Assembly: GCA_951406725.2 (NCBI GenBank)
Contig: OX597829.1
Coordinates: forward strand, 32,302,001-32,366,000
Direction of reading: 5' to 3'
Length of the DNA stretch: 64,000 nucleotides
DNA from: Octopus vulgaris
Lineage: Eukaryota
Part shown: one piece after another, positions 7,535 through 63,240 of the stretch
Position numbering within the stretch: the first letter of the stretch is position 1
How the letters are laid out: every line of letters starts with the position of its first letter
Notes under the pieces: generated by a model
The model's database searches: none
What the model saw: only the letters and a program-made list of their open reading frames with translations
Told to the model about the DNA's origin: nothing
Translations under genes and position numbers: made by a program

Positions 7535-7552
7535 TGAGCGACAACTTTTTCG
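7535..7552 (+). CDS. MAPK8IP3: 18-nt microexon of the JIP3/JIP4 gene, (x)SDNFF(G), phase 1 to phase 1
   Basis: Long pyrimidine tract, then cctgctatcttcAG|TGAGCGACAACTTTTTCG|GTAAGA. It joins in frame to the 16617 exon to give SDNFFGMGKE, matching DDFFGMGKEV of vertebrate JIP3. Confidence 0.85.
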
Positions 7553-18560: not shown

Positions 18561-19826
18561 GTGAGTTGAGTTTGCTCAGCAATTAAATTCAGTTTATATC
18601 CTTCTTTTGTTTGAATTTGTATATTATAATAGATAATTCAGTATGAATCTGGCAAACAAAGCCTGTAAACCATTTTGGAAATATTTTACATCTTTTCATC
18701 CATATTGCTCTTTCCTCTGGTATGAATATCATAATTCTGTCTTTTCTAATTCATCAAGGATATCACTAAAGCTAGTGACTCATTGATGAATGTAACTGAT
18801 TATGAAAATGGAAGATATTTATCACATTTTATTGTGGAGCATACAATTCTAAGAGAACTTTTAAAAAAAACCATGGTTCTTATTGTAAAGACAGCTTTGT
18901 TTACAGACTTTGAATGATTACATCGTAATTCTTTCATGCTTTTCATGGTATTTTTGAAAAAAATATTAGTATTCATTATTAAGTATTTTGCCATTAGTTT
19001 TGCAGTGAGGAACTTATTCTGTTCTGGTGTCTTCTTCCATACTTTAATCTGCCATCTCCTTGCATAAAGCTGTCTCCCTATTTACTGTAGCCCTATTCAG
19101 TGTTGATGCCATGAAAAATCACCCAGTATACTCTGTAAAGTGGTTGGTGTTAGGAATGACATCCAGTCACAGAAACCATGTTGCTGGAGCATGATGCAAT
19201 CCTTAAACCAATTTGATGATGTCAAACCATCCAACCCATGCCAGCATGGAGGATGGATTGTAGATGATGATGATTGCATAAGAATGATCAATAGTCAGTA
19301 CTCTCTTCCACTAAACACCTGGTTTTATATGTAGCATATTTGATGTTTATATTCTGTCTCAGACACAGCCATTAACCAAAGTTATCTAAATCATGGAATA
19401 CACCTTTGTAATTGTTGTAGTAGAAGGCATAGTGGGCGCATTCTTAAGAATTTTATATATTTAAAATATTTTATAATTTTTTTCATTACTTACATCAATT
19501 TGTTGAACTTAATATTTTTTGATACATTGGTTGGTAGATGTATCTGAGATGGTAGATGAATCGCATTATTGTTAAAATTTTGTATCTCTTAGATTGATAA
19601 AGTACGGGTTTCAGCAATAAGTTGAGTTGTAGAATGTGTGATTCAAGTGACCACATGTTTGTTCATATGTCTGCTCTTAATTCCATTTGGGAGATTCATC
19701 AATGTTACCACTTTCTCTTTGTCCTCCTCCTTCATAAATTTTGTTTTGTCTTTACAATAATAATCTGTAATGTCATGCTTGTGACAAATAAAATAATTTG
19801 TTGCTAATCTTCTATTTCTATTCCAG

Positions 19827-19974
19827 TGAACATGAAATTATGCGCGAGGAAATCAATTCTCTACAAACAGTAAAATCACGTCAAATACAGCGCATCTCAG
19901 AATTAGAAGATAACTTAAAGAAAGTGAAAGAAGAATTAGAGAAAAAATCTCAGGTTGCTCAAGCTGATGAAGAA
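19827..19974 (+). CDS. MAPK8IP3: JIP3/JIP4 exon, (S)EHEIMREEINSLQTVKSRQIQRISELEDNLKKVKEELEKKSQVAQADEE, coiled coil
   Basis: ttccAG|TGAACAT...GAAGAA|GTGAGT, 148 nt, phase 2 to 0. Confidence 0.96.
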
Positions 19975-20210: not shown

Positions 20211-20401
20211 GATGATATTCCAATGGCTCAGAGGAAACGGTTCACACGTGTTGAGATGGCACGGGTATTGATGGAACGCAATCAATACAAAGAACGTCTT
20301 ATGGAACTACAAGAAGCAGTCAGATGGACAGAAATGATCCGTGCTTCAAGAGAACATCCAGATTTAGCTCCAACCAAGAAGAAGTCCTCTATTTGGAATT
20401 T
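20211..20401 (+). CDS. MAPK8IP3: JIP3/JIP4 exon encoding the RH2 domain, [50 protein letters not shown]...KKKSSIWN(F)
   Basis: ttacAG|GATGAT...AATTT|GTAAGT, 191 nt, phase 0 to 2. [39 protein letters not shown] is diagnostic for JIP3/JIP4/Syd. Confidence 0.99.
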
Positions 20402-23400
20402 GTAAGTATTACTTAAATTTCCATTATTTTTCCAGATTTTTATTACCATATTGAATAAATTTTTATTTTAATGTTCTAAATTTATCAAAATATTTTAAAA
20501 CTTAATTTTGAATAAAAGAAGAAATAAAAAAAAAAATAGGACCCCGACAGTATTTTCATTAAATCTTTTATACTTTTACTTTTTATGTAAATAAAATTAA
20601 TGTAGGTTTAATGATTTTTTTTTTATAAATTGTCAGTTTTCGTCTCGTGTTTTTCTGATTATGCAGAGAACTAATAAAATTTGACATATAAAACAAAGCC
20701 AAAAAATGTTCCCTTAACTTTAGGGTATAAGGGTCATATAAACTTAGAATGTTGCATGCATTTCATTTTATATCATAAGAATTTAGAAACTTTGAGAGAA
20801 CATGAAATAATTCATTTTCAGCAGTTGAACTTCTTGCTGAAGTCATAAATAATAGCATCTATATAACATGTAAATATTGAGTTTAAAATCCCTTTGCATA
20901 GAAAAGGTTGAGGGCTGACCATGGAGCTCACAGAAGATGACATATTTCGTGTTCTCTTGAAATTTTAAAATTTTGATGTAGGCAATATACAATTCTCACT
21001 GGTAAGATCCATGTTTCTAAAATGGATAGAGAAATTCGAAGGAAACATTTCATTTTTTGATATTTTAAATCTATATTTATTAAAACACTCTCAGATTACT
21101 TTCTTTTTATTTTATATCTCTATTTTTGAAAATGTTATTTGATACTTTTAAATAAAATTATTTTTATTATTTCAATACTTTTTTATTTAGCAATTAAGTT
21201 TAACACAATTTGCTTTCTGTTTTTAGTACTTAATTTTAGTAACTTCACTTCCCACCTTATAAATTTTTTAAACAGATTATAATGGAGCTATAAATACAAA
21301 CTGAAAACAAATTTAGCTTGAAATTTAATCATTTCTTCAGATTACTGTAGATTAATAAATAAAAGACACATATGTCTATGTGTGTGATGGTTGTTCAAGT
21401 TTATTATAAGAAGTCTGCTAGTCAGAACATTCATGTTGACATACAAATATTATAAAGCCTGGCAGAACAAGAATATACAGTTTCTTTAAGTTTGTGCTGA
21501 AGTTGGTGCTGACTGGACTTATGTTTTCATCAAAATGAATCTTTAAAAAGTTGCCAAAAGACTCTCCACTCTTTTTTGTTTTTTAATATGTTGACGAATT
21601 TAGGGACATGTTTTATATAGTGTCTGCATTTGAAATATTTTCCAATCACATTTAGGTTTGTTAATTCATGTCATTTGTGCAACTGCAATATGTATGTGTG
21701 TGTGTGCATCTAGAGAACTGTGGTGACAAATAGTTCATTGTTAGCTGCTAATATTTGAATTGGTTGAATACAAACAAGGGTTTGTTTACTGCCTGCTGGG
21801 TGGTGTTGGTGGATGCAGTGACAGTGTCGTGTTTAGTAGGCATGATCTTCCTTTGTGCCAAATGCAAAAATGCGCAATCAGTTTTTCTGTGTTGATGAGT
21901 TTTATAGAAGTCACTAAACAGATGGTTCTGTGTTAGCAACAAAGAAGGAAAAAGAAAGAGGGTAGGGAGGATAGTAAATCGTAGAAAAAGGAAGTGGAAA
22001 ATAAAAACACAAGAAGGGTAAACTGAAGATGAAAGAAAATGATACAATGTAAAACATGTTTGGATGATTGTTTAGTATGGTCATCTTATTTCAACACCAT
22101 CATTTAATTTCCATGTTCCATACGGGTATGGGCTGGATGGTTTGACAGGATCCAATGGGTCCAAGAACTGCATTGCGCACCAATGTCTGCTCTGGCATGA
22201 TTCCTAAGGCTGGATGCCCTTTCTAATGTTAACCACTTTACAGTGTTTACAGGGCACTTTTTCATGCCACCAGCAATAGTAAGATTGCCATACAGCTCAC
22301 AAAACTACAAAACCCTTGCTGGGGGAAGTGGGCAGCTTTATGTTGGAGATCAGGAGTTAAAGTATGAGAGAAGGTGATGGTGAACAGATTCTTCTAGAAG
22401 AGTTATATGACACAATGTAAATGTAAATGTATTAAAAAATAATTAGGTTGTGAATTGATGTTCCAGGTGAAGTATGAATGCTATTACCTGTTTCAGATAT
22501 TTACTGGAAACCTAATTGCAGCAGTACAAATACCTACTTTTTTCCAAACATACCTCTATATACCTTTTTATTAGCCTTCAACCTACATCTGCCAATGGGT
22601 GAAAGAGTCTTTCTTTGGAAAGATTGCCAAGAGGGAATGTGAACTTTCTACATACAAATGTTATATAGTTTTATTAATGAGTTAGTTGTGCAGCTAAAGC
22701 ATACCTTGTGATCTAGCTGTACATGAAGAAAAATTATAACTCCGTTTAGTATAGATGTGACCTTTTTATACCTAGTGATTGATGACAGCTCTATAAATAC
22801 TTTATTTTATGTATAAAATGTCTCTATAAACTTTTGCTCACTCACCTCAAGCAAATACTGTCACTTTGTAACCAACTTATCATCATCATCATGCATCTAC
22901 TTTCCATGTTGGCATGGGTTAGACAGTTTGAAACTGGAGAGCTGCACTAGGTTCCAGTCTGATTTGGCATGGTGTCTGTGGCTGGATGCCCTTCCTAACA
23001 CCAATCACTCCAAGAGTGTAATGGGTGCTTTTTATGTGCCATTGGCACAGGTGCCAGTTGCGTGAAACTGCATCAGCCATGATTATGGTTTCACTCACTC
23101 CCTTCAAAATTCCTGTGCCAAAATTAGAATATTCTTTTAAGATTTACTTTTTTTAAGATTTTTCAAATTCAGTTCCAGCCAATCTTGACATAACTTAAGT
23201 TTTCAACCCTTTTGTGATTGACAAATTAGTACTAATAGTATTACAAGTGTTGATACAATTACCTCTCTCTCTCTTTCTTTCTACGTGCAGTCTTGTATGA
23301 CTGAAAAATTGCTGATGCTACTACCTTCATCATGCCTACCACCTTTATCATAAAACAATGCATTACAGTATAAAGTTAACATTGAAGAACAACACTTAAT

Positions 23401-24174
23401 AATATATCCTTGTCAGATTCTAAATCTTTGGCAAAAAATATATACAGAATGTGTGAGTGTGTCCTTTTATTTTAAGATAAGTCTCCCGCATCCATGATTA
23501 GTGATTAGTTTTGATCAGTCATGCGCGTGCGCGCACACATACACACACACACACACACACATATAGTGTTGAAGTAATTGCTGTATTGTTAAGAGGTTCA
23601 CTGCACATGCATGTGATTCTGTGTTTGATCTTACTATTGGACATATATGGCATTGGGCAAGACTCTTTTACTCTGTGGGTTGCAAAATTCCTTATGATGG
23701 AATTTGGTAGACAGTAAGTGTGCATGCAGAAGCCTGTCGTGTGTGTTTGTGTAATGTACACATGTATATCATCGTCATCATCATCAAATGTCTGTTTTCT
23801 ATGCAGGCATGGGTTGGATGGTTTGGCAGGAACTGGGAAGCTGGTGGATTGCACCATGCTCCATTGTTGCTTTGATATGGTTTCTGCAGCTGGATGCTTT
23901 CCCAAATGTCAACTTTTTTACAGAGTGCACTGAGAGCTTCTTATGTGGCACCAGCAGGGTCATTCAGTAACTTGCAAGAAAAAAAGACTCCTCAACTAGG
24001 AGGAATAGTATTGAAGATGGCTTTGTGCTAGTTGATGAGAAATTAAAAAGTATTGTAGAGGGATAGAGACTGGTGTCTTCTTGTAGAAGAGATACATATA
24101 TACAAATGTATATGTATATAAATGTGTGTGTGTATATATATATAATCTTCACCATCATTAGCACCAAGCAGCGT

Positions 24175-24568
24175 TTAGGCATAAGCAAACTTTAGGTGAA
24201 TTAAAATATGTTTGTAACATATTTCAAATTCTAAAGGCAAATTCACTACATTTGATATGGAGAAAAAAATTCCCTCTTATGGTAAGAGGTGTAGAAACAT
24301 CATATCTGCCCAGTGCTGTCCCCTATCAGATTCCCAAATGCATTTATAGCCCTTTAGTTGTTATCAATGAGAAATAGTGAGGAGAAATAACTCTGAGCAG
24401 ATTTTAAAAACATAGCTTTAACATTGACTGAGTTGTGCCATGGGGCTGCCAAGTTGGAAGAAATTCAATAGTATTAGTGCCAAATAGTAATTAGGCATAA
24501 GCAAACTTCAGGTGGGTAAAAATATGTTTGTGACATATTTCAACTTCTAAAGGGAAATTCCTTTACAT
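24175..24568. repeat. Imperfect direct repeats of about 75 bp (24175-24250 and 24491-24568) flanking about 240 bp
   Basis: ttaggcataagcaaactt.aggtg..taaaatatgtttgt.acatatttcaa.ttctaaagg.aaattc occurs twice. Confidence 0.8.
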
Positions 24569-26017
24569 GATCAAAATTATTTGGTCCTCTGTACTCCATT
24601 CTCAAGACATTTCCTAACATATCCAAACAGTCTCTACAATATCAAAACTAAATTGTTTGCAGTTACGATATTTTAGTATATCAACTTGTTTTGTTATTTT
24701 CTTAATTATTTTCTATAAATTCTTATAAAAAATGTTTTAAGTTTCCTGTTATATAAATGTAGTTATTAGAATTCATTTTAATTAATCCTTTGCTTGTCCA
24801 AACCATTTTCATAAGTTTGTCCTAAACATCCACGAACCATGCTTGATTTCAGACTTTCAGTTAGCCCTTGTTTCATATGTTCTGAATAATGCTAAAGTTT
24901 CCTTTCATAAATCCTAAGTTACACTGGTGGTTGAAAAAAATAAGGGGGTTGTTTATCATATATGATACAGGGACACCAGGGAAATAAGTGCTGTATATCA
25001 CATGTAATACATAGGACTGGCAAAGGGTTAAATAAAGAAATTAGCTCGGCAACAAAATTAATAAACATGGAAGAAGCTTTTCTTTACATTGATTTAATAT
25101 ATTTCCATAATGAAACTGAATATTTTCCCTTTCTATTTTTCCCTGAATTTTCTTGTAAGCCAATGGTTGATAAATAACTTATATGAAGAATATATTTTAT
25201 TTTTTGCTCCTAAGACAATTGCATTATCGTTGTTGTTGTTGTTGCTAGCATGTTTAGCTTTCATTGTTGTACTTGTGAGAAGTATTTGTTCTATATATAT
25301 ATATAATATTGTTGTTTCTAACCTAATTGCTTTTTGTCAGTAGTTGTATTATTGTTGAACATTTGATGTCTTTTGTGCATAATGGGTATTATAGACTAAA
25401 ATATAACTGTCATACCATTTGATATTAAATATATATATATGTTTTAACCCTATTTGGGAAAAAAAAAATTCTCCAAGCCCTTAAAAATAAAGCTTGCATG
25501 TATACACATTTATTTTTTAAAATATGTGTAATAAAGTAGACTTTTTACTGAGATAATCTGAATCGATGGAGATCTATATATTCATAATGAATTGATAGAT
25601 ATGGAGGTAACTTGTGGACGTCATTTTATATCAGATAGTGGTAATCAAATATAATGATTAACAACTAGTTAAGTTACTTTGGTAGAGATTGTGTTTTCTC
25701 TTAGCTATATTGTGTGGTAAAATTTTAACCAACCACTACAAACTAATGGAACACTTATGGCTTTAATTTGTGCCTGTTCATGGTACTTTTTGACAACCCA
25801 ATAGACTAGGCCAGTTACAGCCAAGTGTTTTGGTCATCGACTTGATTGGTGAAGAAGATAGGATACAAACTAGCATCTCTTTAAACAGTAATTATATCTC
25901 ATTAACAAAATTTGCTCCCAGAGAAAAATTACCATTCTTAAATTTAAAACTTTAATTTTGATCCCAATTTAAAAACATATTTTCCTTTATATATATATGT
26001 GTATATGTGTGTATGCA

Positions 26018-26076
<59 letters not shown>

Positions 26077-29000
26077 TGTGTGTGTAATGTATATAATGTA
26101 TGTGAAACAAAAGTGATCTGAGAAACAAGTCACTGACAACAGTTGTCCTCTTGTCTCCAAATAAGAAAAGTGAGGACATGGGTTTCTGCCTCAATGGGCA
26201 TCATCAGTACAGCAGTTGACTTTGACTTGAGATGTGGACATGTAGAAAAAAAGTGAAGAGCATTTGTAGCTTATGTAATTAGCATAATTAAGACAAAAAT
26301 GATCTAAGACAAATAAATGAATATGGCTAGTAGTATGAGTTGAGATAATTGATAAAGGTACATTATATACCATACAGGATAGATTCTTGGTTTATTGAAA
26401 TTATCTTTGTTTCAAGAGAAAGTATAGTATTGTCTTGTGTTTGATTTGTTTTGTGTGTTGTTTATGTTGGAACACAATGTCAGCTATATAATTCCCTTTG
26501 TTTAGTTGTAAACCTCATTAGTTTTCAGTGCACATAATATGGAAATATGGTAAAGTGCAATGGAAAGAAGCAGATTTGTAGTCCTACAAGCCCCCCCCCC
26601 CCCAAAAAAAACCTCAGTTACTCTGTTCTTTGAATCTACATCTTTAACTTAGCTGTTCTTGTTGAGATATTACACATCTAAGCATTTTAGATGTCAGCCT
26701 CAGCTGTGCATCAATGAATTCATTAATAGTTAATATTGTGTTGTGGTTGACATAAAATATTTACCTGCTTACTTTAGAATTGCATTAATCCTGAGTAAGA
26801 GTCATTAGTGTAGGTTTTTGTACATTTTCTAACAAACTCTCCTCACAGGTTATTGGTCAACTTGAGCTTATGGTAAAAGACATAGCCAAATAAACCATGT
26901 TGATATGAGATTCTTAATTGTGCAACAATAGAAGTAAAAAGAAAAAAGGAAATCAAGTTAAAGTTAAAATAGCAGTTTGTTTGAAATACCAAGAAAGAGA
27001 AAAGAAAAAGTGAATTTTTTAATATTTCCAGTTGCTTCATGAATCTATCAACAAACATTTAAAGTGAAAGTAACTTATTTAGACACAGTATTTCCAAAAG
27101 ATGAAATGGTACAACTATCCTGTTTAGTATAATTCTGTTCTGGATATTTTATAATTGATATCACTAAACATGCTAATGTTTAAACATACAGCTGTTACAA
27201 TTGTACATTTAAGTCATTGGACTATAGCCATACTAGGGTACTGTCTTCAAGGGTTTTAGTCAAACAAATTGGCTCCAACATTTATTTTTTTAAGCCTCAA
27301 ATTTGTTCTATGTATATTCATATAAAATTATATTGTAGGCCATTATATCTGATAGAAAGCACCAGCCATATGTTGATATTGTTTATCTGAGGCCCTGACA
27401 TATGTATTGCAATTATGACAATATCTGCAGAAACAGCCAGTCTATACATATGCACTGAAGCCTTAATCAAAAATTTCTCTGTTCTTAAACCTACTTAATT
27501 CTAATTCAAAGAAACATACATTTACACGCAACTCTCTCTGTTTTTCACTCTCCCTCTTTCACTATACAGTACATAGGTGTTTGTATGTATGTATGTATGT
27601 ATGGCAATAGCTTGTGTGTAGAGGAGAGGGCATGTAGGAAGGTTTCTTAAAACAAAGAAGATAATGAGATCTGTTTGACAAATAAGTTTGGATTGTTGAA
27701 GATTTGTTTGCTGTAGAATCAAAGATGAAGGTAGTAGATTCTGCCATATTTTAAGGAACACAATCTGATGTAATGTGCACGCACGCACGCACACACACAC
27801 TTTTATAATATACATCCTAAGACAGAAGTGAACTGTTGGAATAATACAGTGGATTTAAATACTGAAGAATCAATTAGCTAAAAAAGCAAATAAACATTTA
27901 AAGCTGATTGGGCAGTGCGTTGTCACATCTTAAAATTGATGGAATCTGCTGGATGTGTCAATTGACAAATATAAACATTATAAATGAGTGAAATAAAGCT
28001 AAATAAAATGAAGTGTTGATAAAGGAATATAAGACATTATAAGCACTGCTTCTGCAAAAGAAAAAAAAGTTGGCAAAAATCAAATGAGTTTGGGAAACAT
28101 CAATGAAGTAAAATGATAAAAAAATGAAAACAAGAGCGTGTGTGTTGTGTGTATGTGTGGGTGTATATTTATTTATTAAATTTTTGCTGTCAACATAGAT
28201 TACTCAAAGCTCTTTTCTTATCTCTGTGTTATCATTATCTTAGTAATTATCTAGTGTTAAATATTGTAGTGATTATCTAATGTTAATTATCCTAGTGATT
28301 ATCTAATTATTGTAATCAGTAATCAGACATGTACAAGTAGTATTTCACTAGATCTGTTTGGGCAGGTGACAGCAGTACCACAACACTCTCTCCCCACCAC
28401 ATAAGCATACTCACCTATAGACCCATGGTGATCTTTCTGTATGTGTATAGTTATTTATTATCATCATAGAGAAAGACAGTGAATTGGTAAAATTGCTAGA
28501 ACATTTACACCTCAACATTCCAAGTTCAAATTCCATTGAAGTTGATTTGCCTTACAAAACTGAAAAAAAATTATAATATCAGATTAGGTTAATGTCACAT
28601 TTTGTGATCTTGTATTTTGTATTGGAAATTCTTATTATTGGTAGAAACCTGGAAAATCATAATGTATATATTGTATGTTGGTAGATGACACAAATATTCC
28701 AATGCTTGTTGTTGGATTCACCATTTTTAGCTAATAATAATGCATCCATGGTATTCATTTACATCTTGGTAAATTTAAGCAATAGTGTCTCAACAATGGA
28801 CATGGCAGAGTGTGAATAGTAGAATACCAATTGATAGGACCTTTCAGTTTGTTTGTTTATGACTTATCAAGTACTGATAAGAATTCAAGAATACATCTTA
28901 GTTTTTCCATATATATCTTCAGATTGTTGAATAATACTATGTAAGCACATTTCTCTTTTACACCGTTTTTAATTTTTAACAATAGTTATTACAAATAAGG

Positions 29001-29385
29001 ACTTGAATTTGGATTTAATAATTATTTATTATTCAAATTTTTTGTGCCACTTGTTACTGCTTCAAGATGCTTCTTCCTGAAATTTCAACATGAAATTTGA
29101 AAACCAAATACACAGATAGCTCACACAGACATAATGACTAGAGCTTACATCCCTTGTATATTAATAATCATTTAAAACTAGATACATTTAGGTGCGCTAA
29201 TAATTTCATATAAAAAATTAGATTGTTATAATTGATAATTGAAATTATTATTATTATTATAATTCTTTTTACTATAAAACTCCGATTGTCGCACCTAGTT
29301 TTCTTACTATTTGAATGTAAATAAATAATATTGGTGAATATTATTTTTTGTTAGGTTTCAAAACTAATTTTGTGGTTATTTTTAG

Positions 29386-29461
29386 TTTCAGCCAGCTTGT
29401 CTCACCAAACCCTCCTGTCTCCAATAAGAAGAAAGCAGCCCCACCGACACAAGTCATTTAA
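29386..29461 (+). CDS. MAPK8IP3: Putative alternative terminal coding exon of JIP3/JIP4, (F)FSQLVSPNPPVSNKKKAAPPTQVI*
   Basis: Branch-like actaat, then ttatttttAG|TTTCAGCCAGCTT. It has the same phase-2 start TTTCAGC as the 63061 exon, forms a GC-richer coding-like island in very AT-rich DNA, and ends in TAA at 29459-29461 with no good donor. Confidence 0.7.
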
Positions 29462-30436
29462 TCTGCACTTATGAAGACAAATAGTTTTTTCTTTGGTCTC
29501 AACTTTGACATGAAACTTATTCATCAATACACACACATGTGCACACACACACACATGCACGCACACACACTTAAATATAAAAACTATAGTAACTATTTCG
29601 ATCACCTTTTTTTTTCCTGTGAAGAAAAAAGTGAAAATATAAAAATTATATTTTAATTTATTTTTATTTTTATATTTACTTTCATTTTTTAATATTTTAT
29701 TTCATTTATTTAAAAAAGAAAATGATAATTAAGATCATTTATTTGTAAGTAAAATGTTGAGGCCAAAGGAAAGATAAATTGCAATTGTCCTCGTTACTTG
29801 TAGATAATTGACAGGGTATTTAAAGGAAAGAAGTCTAAAAAGAAATTGATTTTTAAAAAAAAAGTCAAAGTAAAGTTAAATTCCAATCAATAGGGATCAA
29901 TAATCGATTGAAATGCTTACTATAGGCTTCAAAAAAAAAAAAGAAAATCATTTTTGACTAATTCTTTTGGCTCCTTTTCTGTTAAAATTTATGGTGCTGC
30001 ATTTTTTTTACCCACTAAAATCTGAGGGAGTGGTTTGTTTGATAAGTCTATTTGATAATTTAAATAGAAAGATAAAGTTTACTAAAAAAATTAATAAAAA
30101 TAAAAAAATACACACACAGAAAATTAAATCTATTTGGAGAAATCTTTAAATGGAAACAAAAACATTATATATACATATGTGTGTGTGCATGTGTGCACAC
30201 GTGTGTGTGTGTATATATGTATATGTATGTGTATAGATGTGTGTGTATGTATATATGTATATATATATATTGTGTATACATGCATATATATATATATATA
30301 TACACACATATATACACACATACATATGTATGCATATGTATTTAGATCTGGCATGTTGTCTTCTGTCCAGTCGCATGTTTTGATATTTGTAGTAACATGT
30401 GTATATATGTATATATAATAAATATATGTATATGAA

Positions 30437-50232: not shown

Positions 50233-52611
50233 TAACACTGACTGCTACCATATGTTTGAGTTCAAATCCTACTATTACAGCTGCTTTGTTGGAATGTAAA
50301 ACCAGTTTCATTCAGTTTTCATAGTTCAGATACTCTTCTTAACTGGTTGCAACTGAGTTGTGTCTCATTGTGCTGCATCAGGAATCTCTGTCCATTATTA
50401 ATTTGAGTACATTTTCAGTTTCATGTATGTGCTGTCAATAATGTTAATGTAGTTGAGTGGATTTCTTCCTCTATTTGAGTGTAGAATTCTCAAAATATGA
50501 CTACTTGTATGGCCTATTGTTCAGTAGGGTATCAATGACCAGCAAAATCAATCTTGTATGAAACAGTAATAGTAGAGATGGTTGGAATGTGATAATGAAT
50601 TTCCTCTCTGGTCTTATACTCACAACATGAGATGAGATGTTTTGAGCCCTCTTGAAAAGTTTGATATAAATACCATCAAGGTGATTTTGAAGCTGTTCCT
50701 ACAGATGTGTCTTGTCTACCAATAGAAAGAAAAACCAAACAGTTATTATCTGTAACCAGAGTACTTAATGTACAATGTCTCTACCCACTTACCTATATAG
50801 GTACCATCAATGCAGGTGTAAAGCTCACTTCTATTAACAAAAGCTGAGACACTACAATTAAGTCCTTGAAGTAAGTTTAAACTCATTTTAGCAAAAAAAC
50901 TTCCTCTCTCCAAAGACTTCCTATTTGCATCATGTATGTCTTATGCTTTTACAGTTTATTATGGGAATTTCTCCAGAATTTGCCTCTCTTCGATTTTCAG
51001 GGAAAATAGCATGTGGTACCTCTAGCAGTGAATCACAATTTCATCATTGTCATCATTTAATGTCCATCTTCCATGCATGCATGAGAAGGATTGTTGACAG
51101 GAGTTGGCCATGTAGAAACTCTACCCAAGGCTACTATGTTTTGGCAGGGATTTTTTACAGTTGGATGCCCTTCCTAACACCAGCCACTCTGCCTGTGCTA
51201 ATGCCACGTAAAAAGCATTGAGTCCACCCTGCAAAGTTAGTTTTGGTAAGATTTTTACAGCTAGGTACCCTTCCAGATGCTAACCATGTTACAGTGTGAA
51301 CTGGATGCTTTTAATATGGTACCAGTATTGGTAGGGTAACCAAGAAACACACAAAACATGGAACTATGAAAAGAGCAGGGCATTTGTGTCAGAGGATGAA
51401 AGTTAGTGTGACAAAGAGACAGAAGCAGGTGTTTTGCCACAACAGAGGGGACATAAGAGGAGGTGATCCAGTATCAGATAATGAAAGGTTTGGGTGTAAC
51501 AGAGAAATAGAGAGGCAGAAATAGGTGTCTTGTTATAGAGGAGCTACATGGTTATCCAGTGAGAGAGAGAGAGAGCGGGGTACAAGAAAGAGGCCAGAAG
51601 CAAGTGTGCTGATGTAAAAGTGATACTTGGTTACATAGTCAGAGGAAAAACGAGGTGAGTAGGAGACAGCAAAAGTGTAAGAGAGAATAAAAGAGAGATG
51701 GTGTAGTGCTGGGGTATACTCACAAGTAACAAGAACATGAGCATAGAACCTGGGTAGAGAAATAGGGAGTGAATGTGATCTGTTGTGCAAGTCATTTAGG
51801 GATACCAGCTCATTGTATTGCATGGTCGATTATGTGAGCAACTCGTGTGTTCTACATTGCCAGGTACAAGATGTAGTTGAAAAACATATATTTTATAGTT
51901 GACAAATGTTTCAGCAGCAAAAGCACAGTATTCAATGGTCCAGATCATGATGGTAACTGAAAGTTAAAAAAATATAAAAATATTTCCTATATGAAGACAT
52001 TGTTACCATCTGTCTAACTTCACTAGCTAACAGGCATCAAAACAACAGGAACGGGAGGATTCTTTATCACATACTGTTTTTTCAGTATCTATTTCTTAGG
52101 ATCATCATAGTGCTTTTCATTGCCTTTATATTTCTAATGACTCCTTCAGTCATATATCCATCAATATCAATGGCTGGTCTCTCTTTTTGGTGTACTTAGA
52201 ATAATCTCCCTCTCTCATATATGTATTCTTTTCATTCTTATAGTATGTTTCTATGCTTCTTTGCAATGTGAGTGAGGGAAAATGCTTTGCATTCATTTTA
52301 TCCATACTTTTGTGGTTGATGTTTGATTTACACTGTGCTCATAGTCCATTGGATGACATACAGTATATATGTGACTGGGCTGAATATTCATAATCATGAA
52401 ATGGAATGGCAAAGATACATAGCTAAGCAAACACATGACCAGGTACATGTGCATATGTTTAAATGTGTGTGTATAACATACATACACAAAGAAAATTCAT
52501 AGTGACTTTGAAAGTTTTACCTTGTGCTTGCTTCATCAGACTGCACACTGGCATGCAACAAACCTTCAAAGTCACTGTTAACTTTGCTTTTTTTTAAATA
52601 CATTTTATATG

Positions 52612-62403: not shown

Positions 62404-63060
62404 TTAAAATTCATATTCCATGCTAGCATTGGCTGGACAGTTCAACAGGGTTCAATGGGTCTAGGAATTGTATCATGCTCCTGTGTCTACAACTGTATGT
62501 CCTTCCTAACACCAACTACGTTACAGTGGTGCTTTTTACATGCCACTGGCATGTATGTGAGATCACCATGCAGCTTGTAAAACTATGAACCAAGAGAGAG
62601 GCAGCTGTATGTTAGGAGTTGAGGGTTGTATATCTCTATTCACATATATATATGAATAGCAATATTGTTCTCTATTCGTATTCATCTATCATTATACTTT
62701 ATACTACTTTAAATGTGTAGCACATTGTTATTACATTGTTATTATACAGAATTCCTTATATCATAAATTAACTAGAAAATATCACATAGTTTGTTATATT
62801 GACTGATTGATCAATAGAGAGTATCTCTGGTATATCTCCCAAGGATACTTTAGCGAGATACATGCAGGAGTGTTAAAAAATATTTTTTAATTAAATCTTT
62901 CTTACCTTGTGATGAACAGATCCATTGAACCCATACCAATATGGAAAAGTGAGTATAAAAATGATGGTGATGTTATGTGCAAATATGTGTATGTCCATAC
63001 TCTATCTAATTTTCCTCAATTCATGTCTTCTTATTTCTATCTGTTCTTTTCTTTCCACAG

Positions 63061-63240
63061 TTTCAGCAATCTGTTTAACACCTCCAATAAGCCTAGCAAG
63101 AAACCACTGCCAGTCGCTACCGTACGATACAATGCTCCAACCACCCATGTCCAACCAGTCGGAGACCCCAACAAAAAGCAACGTAGCAAGTATAACTTGG
63201 GAGAAAAGGCAAAAGCCTATGAATTTTTACAAGACGAAGG
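63061..63240 (+). CDS. MAPK8IP3: JIP3/JIP4 exon, (F)FSNLFNTSNKPSKKPLPVATVRYNAPTTHVQPVGDPNKKQRSKYNLGEKAKAYEFLQDE(G), linker between RH2 and WD40
   Basis: ctttccacAG|TTTCAGC...GAAGG|GTAAGT, 180 nt, phase 2 to 2. Similar to JIP4 FSRLFSSSSNTTKKPEPPVNLKYNAPTSHV...KSKAFDFL. Confidence 0.95.

Follow-up and report, generated by a model that had tools for sequence, protein, structure and literature searches.

A putative alternative last exon, conserved in molluscs, that would yield a WD40-less and still autoinhibited JIP3/4 in Octopus vulgaris

Introduction

As the JIP3/4 gene of Octopus vulgaris carries a 42.7-kb intron with a second, much nearer acceptor inside it, we asked which protein the use of that acceptor would give, and whether it would be a freed or an inhibited adaptor. 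Autoinhibition of JIP3/4 was mapped in 2024 via engineered truncations (Singh et al., 2024; accessible parts of PMC7615804). According to that text, human JIP3 is kept inactive by a helix within residues 561-582, whose FFxxL motif mimics the helix in dynein's light intermediate chain (DLIC) and binds RH1; JIP3(1-582), without WD40, stays inhibited and 1-560 is active, and either F576A or L579A abolishes the binding of the helix to RH1. A preliminary description of the octopus locus had proposed that one gene makes both full-length JIP3/4 and a short RILP-like adaptor by means of a duplicated terminal exon.

Results

The window, the whole stretch of 64,000 nucleotides analysed here, is part of one JIP3/4 gene, as its exons match Octopus proteins at 98-100% identity (tblastn), and the RH2 exon has a single match in the genome. 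The RH1 exon (PF09744) lies upstream of the window on the same strand (G000:C16:32215114), and exons of the WD40 half extend to G000:C16:32396625, ~65 kb beyond the alternative stop; the downstream transcription spared by an early end would accordingly be that of ~65 kb of gene, where more than 30 kb of intron had been claimed. The features referred to below are, in window positions:

7535..7552, + strand: optional microexon VSDNFF, 18 nt, with AG/GT flanks; peptide exact in P0136, missing from P0011
16616..16675 (tblastn bounds), + strand: exon with the start of leucine zipper II (LZII), 100% to P0003/P0011; PF16471
18502..18603, + strand: LZII exon, bounds approximate as the tblastn match overruns the exon end
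19822..19974 (tblastn bounds), + strand: exon with the end of LZII, 98% to P0003
20211..20401, + strand: RH2 exon with the shared phase-2 donor, GT at 20402; aligns to human JIP3 in PDB 8PR2
29363..29385, + strand: acceptor region of the putative alternative exon; ACTAAT at 29363-29368, T-rich tract, AG at 29384-29385
29386..29461, + strand: putative alternative last exon, coding part; starts TTTCAGC, TAA at 29459-29461
29462..30104, + strand: likely 3' UTR, to the first two AATAAA (30093, 30099); end putative
29745..29750, + strand: donor-like GTAAGT, 284 nt past the alternative stop; would give a stop-containing cassette if used
63061..63240, + strand: canonical exon, 180 nt, phase 2-2, AG at 63059-63060; 100% to Octopus long forms

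The final two bases of the RH2 exon open the first Phe codon of FFxxL. From there a short intron of 8,984 nt (20401 to 29386) leads to the alternative exon, which completes FFSQL and continues into a Pro/Lys-rich tail ending TQVI, 24 residues after the junction, and a long intron of 42,659 nt (20401 to 63061) leads to the canonical exon, which starts with the same seven bases in the same phase, completes FFSNL and runs into the WD40 half. Acceptor, branch-like actaat, heptamer, phase, peptide, stop and coordinates were all confirmed in the sequence as first described. Since the intron interrupts the brake motif within its opening codon, restoring the motif falls to the exon that is spliced on, be it the near or the far one.

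By themselves, the seven-base identity and the acceptor and branch-like signals are at chance level. In Markov simulations of the intron, YAG followed by TTTCAGC was expected 0.25 times per intron and appeared at least once in 12 of 60 simulations; YAG followed by F-S-x-L behind a phase-2 acceptor was expected 0.45 times (20/60 simulations) and is observed twice, the other site being 21879. A branch-like motif stands ahead of 263 of the 1109 YAG sites. GC content is 47% in the coding part of the alternative exon and 20% in the 200 nt upstream. With a background frequency of 1.4 AATAAA per kb in the long intron, the copies at 30093/30099 are weak evidence for poly(A) addition. Since the local signals alone do not exceed chance, the reality of the exon rests on the identical or homologous tails found in molluscs.

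Such tails are already in databases without comment, in P0003, in Sepia CAE1329087.1 and in Magallana UniRef entries, which settles the question of annotation that the preliminary description had left open. P0003 (UniParc UPI0006955FFF, 549 aa, N-terminally partial) ends with the alternative peptide in 24/24 residues; up to the junction it agrees fully with O. bimaculoides P0136 and shows one mismatch each to the O. vulgaris and O. sinensis models. An older O. bimaculoides model, P0148, begins at the canonical exon, so that one gene may have been divided at the long intron between two models, with P0003 as its 5' half. Among the listed members of the current Octopus long-form clusters (15 of 18 for O. 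bimaculoides) there was no short tail. For Sepia pharaonis, long (CAE1329084.1) and short (CAE1329087.1) forms are both annotated, on a contig of the same size, and the short form P0152 shares 20/24 tail residues and the stop with octopus. The Logan record P0270 has the same tail as Sepia (20/24 to octopus) at the end of a 563-aa multi-exon open reading frame, and as this frame fits on a contig of 2,123 nt, the contig represents spliced RNA. The spliced junction from the shared donor is present in these contigs of relatives and in the Octopus-identical record P0003. A search of sequencing runs with the exon plus its following sequence gave no RNA run among the matches listed and was not used as evidence. 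We infer that O. vulgaris would likewise use the alternative exon and form a 3' end after it. That the exon gives a JIP3/4 without WD40 is supported by PF19056, detected in P0136 and in none of P0003, P0270, P0152 and P0155; RH1 (PF09744) is present in the short forms P0270 and P0152, and LZII matches PF16471 with E=8e-32.

Homologous terminal tails were found in the bivalves Mercenaria (XP_053398939/40), Magallana (two UniRef entries) and Mytilus edulis (CAG2203616.1), and four oyster-like Logan records also carry the short tail on spliced contigs; the Mercenaria short form, which differs from the long form in one upstream residue, may be a separate locus. M. edulis P0498, not part of the tail profile, was retrieved at 60 bits compared with 48 for canonical Mytilus forms, a gap of 12 bits between sequences with the same upstream residues. 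After removal of its first five residues, the octopus tail still matched those of Sepia and Mytilus (p=0.0005 each), Mercenaria (p=0.0045) and Magallana (p=0.045; 2000 shuffles), and octopus, Sepia and bivalve short tails all end T[QH][IV][IVL]. Together with the 20/24 identity and shared stop in Sepia, this bears out the conservation in related species that had been asked of the exon. Gastropod tails beyond the motif did not match that of octopus (Bradybaena p=0.33, Haliotis p=0.69; 2000 shuffles). In land and freshwater snails the WD40-less tail is longer and opens with FSELV or FSEFM, the Bulinus tail reads FFSEF and lacks the motif Leu, and in abalone the counterpart is a 31-residue internal cassette ahead of the canonical exon, spliced in frame in Haliotis cracherodii and H. 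rufescens (P0095, P0096, P0128).

The junction pattern was matched in 406 of 543 stored proteins, counts that are redundant by isoform: 276 are canonical, 65 have an insert, 16 a terminal alternative tail, and 49 are other, mostly read-through or fragments. The motif Leu is kept in 15 of the 16 terminal-tail records, and the residue after it is Val or Met in all alternative tails (Val in octopus) against a canonical Phe. No named non-mollusc had the same exon among the entries listed (120 of 161, and 150 of 635) and 85 matches from 8000 scored candidates, an absence of little weight because short forms hide inside long-form clusters. P0221, starting FSGLV and ending PTVI, is a possible non-mollusc exception; it is one of several divergent WD40-less RH1-LZII-RH2 proteins (with P0388, P0400, P0407 and P0258, including Styela) that end soon after the helix, some of which may be stand-alone short paralogues. 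The alternative exon is thus found in three mollusc classes, its gastropod tails being related and without a match to the octopus tail beyond the motif, and from the compared sequences it appears to be a real, mollusc-conserved alternative last exon.

Alignment to 8PR2 gave an offset of seven residues, with V60 and the LYHEL motif in agreement. With this offset, the active construct 1-560 ends at ASRE, just before the helix, and F575/F576 coincide with the octopus splice junction. Both the FFxxL motif and the Val of the RH1 pocket (human V60) are kept, and AlphaFold2 (52 sequences) predicted for P0270, at low confidence, a helix across the junction (535-544, pLDDT ~55) and disorder in the remainder. 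The preliminary description had correctly noted that the exon completes a helix (FFSQL), and had overlooked that the known autoinhibitory FFxxL helix is interrupted by the intron; as the completed helix is this one, the predicted function shifts from a freed to a still-braked adaptor. We infer that the short product would be the natural equivalent of JIP3(1-582), with motor, ARF6 and Rab sites and the brake kept and WD40 lost.

As to the origin of the exon, we lean towards tandem duplication of the canonical exon before the mollusc classes split, which seems likelier than a new exonisation. Both exons have the same phase and an F-[SG]-x-L start, FSNL is identical in clam and oyster, the octopus tail end PPTQV resembles canonical PTT[QH]V, and the canonical exon is symmetrical, with the abalone copy still in frame. 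Shuffling (300 shuffles) gave p<=0.05 against the canonical exon for 4/10 alternative tails with the motif and p=0.013 for octopus beyond it; the old duplication first suggested is thus plausible from phase and motif, but beyond the first five residues only 2/10 tails reach p<=0.05.

The same junction carries further variants. Small cassettes are inserted there in mussels, scallop, Littorina, Aplysia and fish (P0042, P0098, P0067, P0111, P0232, P0235, P0236); judged from their sequences, they come between the first Phe and FxxL, which would disrupt the autoinhibitory motif. Models of Mercenaria and Mya (P0015, P0017, P0019, P0022) have ~30 largely hydrophobic residues inserted, possibly a membrane anchor, and Mytilus-like transcripts (P0032, P0352, P0355) show a further terminal exon, FFMPS-stop, without the motif Leu. 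Among 246 candidates in the octopus intron there was no convincing homologue of the bivalve and gastropod cassettes. A 27-nt phase-2 candidate at window positions 50480-50506 has EFSK in common with a bivalve 9-residue insert, has weak splice sites and is probably a chance find.

Discussion

Choice of the near acceptor probably leads to a short, WD40-less JIP3/4 that stays autoinhibited, because the alternative exon rebuilds the FFxxL helix which the intron splits. The RH2 exon donor at 20402 likely picks either the acceptor at 29386 or that at 63061. The near choice would give a protein of RH1-LZI-LZII-RH2 layout that dimerises. Its RH1-LZI part would bind the dynein light intermediate chain and kinesin-1, its LZII would bind ARF6 and kinesin light chain, and its RH2 would bind Rabs; its own helix, folded onto RH1, would keep it off until it is freed by a cargo signal. 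The conserved terminal T[QH][IV][IVL] may be a separate binding site; the tail end is not known to fit a PDZ or LC8 consensus.

In flies, according to the accessible parts of PMC12772503, RUFY binds Syd via WD40 and does not bind Syd 1-529, which nevertheless connects Rab2 with kinesin light chain and binds DLIC, and a stop deleting WD40 is a strong loss of function in dense-core-vesicle transport. From these facts the short form would either serve RUFY-independent cargo, which we prefer, or act as a decoy. In the first case, lacking WD40 and with it RUFY binding, it would bypass the Arl8-RUFY route and handle cargo marked by Rab/ARF6. As a decoy, it would heterodimerise with full-length JIP3/4 or occupy Rabs, ARF6 and motors, and so damp WD40/RUFY-dependent transport. 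Both dimerising zippers and the brake are indeed kept, and in the fly syd-z4 truncation hardly any retrograde vesicle transport is left (same source); however, the terminal motif shared by cephalopods and bivalves suggests that the short form has its own partner, and the activity left in Syd 1-529 also speaks against a mere decoy, which we regard as unlikely.

It is quite unlikely that the exon is a stop-containing cassette or early terminator which lowers full-length JIP3/4 (nonsense-mediated decay), with the peptide incidental. The GTAAGT past the stop has the same context as the true donor and abalone splices its counterpart in as an internal cassette, but with 10 such sites in the 42.7-kb intron (0.23 per kb) a nearby one is unremarkable, FFxxL and the terminal motif are kept across classes despite indels, and the short-form contigs were assembled from RNA.

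The brake of the short form may be weaker, as Val instead of the canonical Phe follows the Leu, and the Leu-less tails of Bulinus and of three Mytilus-like transcripts speak against a brake in every short form. That this Val and the changed tail weaken helix-RH1 binding to the point of a constitutively active or less inhibited protein is very improbable: the loss of Phe in all alternative tails and the Leu-less Mytilus-like form would fit, but F576 and L579, the residues known to matter (accessible parts of PMC7615804), are kept. That the acceptor is fortuitous or the exon a dead remnant in this octopus, and entered the records when a split gene was annotated, is hardly credible, since chance-level signals and the older model broken at the long intron are outweighed by the cuttlefish tail and stop, the spliced contig and the homologous tails in three bivalves.

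The preferred product, an autoinhibited short JIP3/4, can be placed among known systems. Full-length JIP3/JIP4/Syd/UNC-16 (MAPK8IP3, SPAG9) comes from the same gene, and RH1, LZI, the Spindly-like motif, LZII, RH2 and FFxxL are retained from it; the short form differs in lacking the WD40 half (~790 residues shorter) and in its distinct 19-residue end after the helix. In alternative last exons and intronic polyadenylation generally, one donor faces a near terminal and a far internal acceptor, and truncated isoforms result. This class of mechanism is ordinary; here, unlike in ordinary cases, the junction interrupts a regulatory motif, which each of the two exons has to restore. Mouse JIP3a is possibly a C-terminal truncation; it is not defined in the accessible parts of PMC9965202, PMC13499124 and PMC6002436. 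Macaque SPAG9 X15/X16 (P0216, P0534; RefSeq predictions) and a Styela JIP4-like protein of 598 aa are likewise RH1-LZII-RH2-helix proteins without WD40, but end after canonical-type sequence and not with this exon; the macaque forms stop at the canonical exon end and are thus WD40-less one exon later. The engineered human JIP3(1-582) is also an autoinhibited construct that ends just after FFxxL without WD40 (Singh et al., 2024; same parts of PMC7615804), whereas the octopus form would be made naturally, by conserved splicing, and would have Val in place of Phe plus a further conserved tail.

RILP, RILPL1 and RILPL2 too combine RH1, RH2 and an inhibitory-type helix without WD40 (accessible parts of PMC9284427). 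The short form, in contrast, keeps the JIP LZII, has no PF11461 match and lacks a C-terminal TMEM55B-binding motif. PF11461 had no match in the 10 proteins scanned, and its sole match in the genome is on C1, in a separate RILP-like gene on the minus strand (G000:C1:52336980-52423463; L002, L004) whose RH1 and PF11461 matches lie 86 kb from each other. For these reasons the earlier label 'RILP-like' holds for architecture only. Loss of a TMEM55B-binding motif (accessible parts of PMC12393467) from the short form was considered and rejected, as [EQ]x[GA]xEA occurs in 0/10 invertebrate long forms and is present in human JIP4.

Molluscs (cephalopods, bivalves, gastropods) thus appear to keep a natural counterpart of the key JIP3 truncation, with the brake motif rebuilt in a second exon, and such a natural truncation would be comparative evidence, obtained independently, that the helix does not need WD40 to work. 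The role of the WD40 half is only beginning to emerge, and the short form could serve to tell cargo that depends on WD40/RUFY from cargo that needs Rab/ARF6 only, in animals whose axons are very long. No description of a short mollusc JIP3/4 isoform was found in the literature searched, most subscription papers lying outside it.

That many animals have variants at this junction suggests that splicing controls the off-switch of a dynein adaptor, for which vertebrate data are relevant. A tentative and rather doubtful extension is that the intron is an ancient splicing dial on the JIP3/4 brake: the terminal exon would give a WD40-less braked adaptor whose T[QH][IV][IVL] recruits a partner that substitutes for RUFY, small cassettes would lift the brake, abalone would have two helix halves in tandem, clams would add a possibly membrane-anchoring segment, and splice choice would let neurons decide on the direction and the cargo of transport.

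Finally, the 18-nt microexon at 7535-7552 is included in some Octopus isoforms and sits just ahead of LZII. It has a long pyrimidine tract and a TGC 12 nt upstream, which we take to be the layout of neural microexons. A stretch resembling its peptide also occurs in human JIP3 (8PR2).
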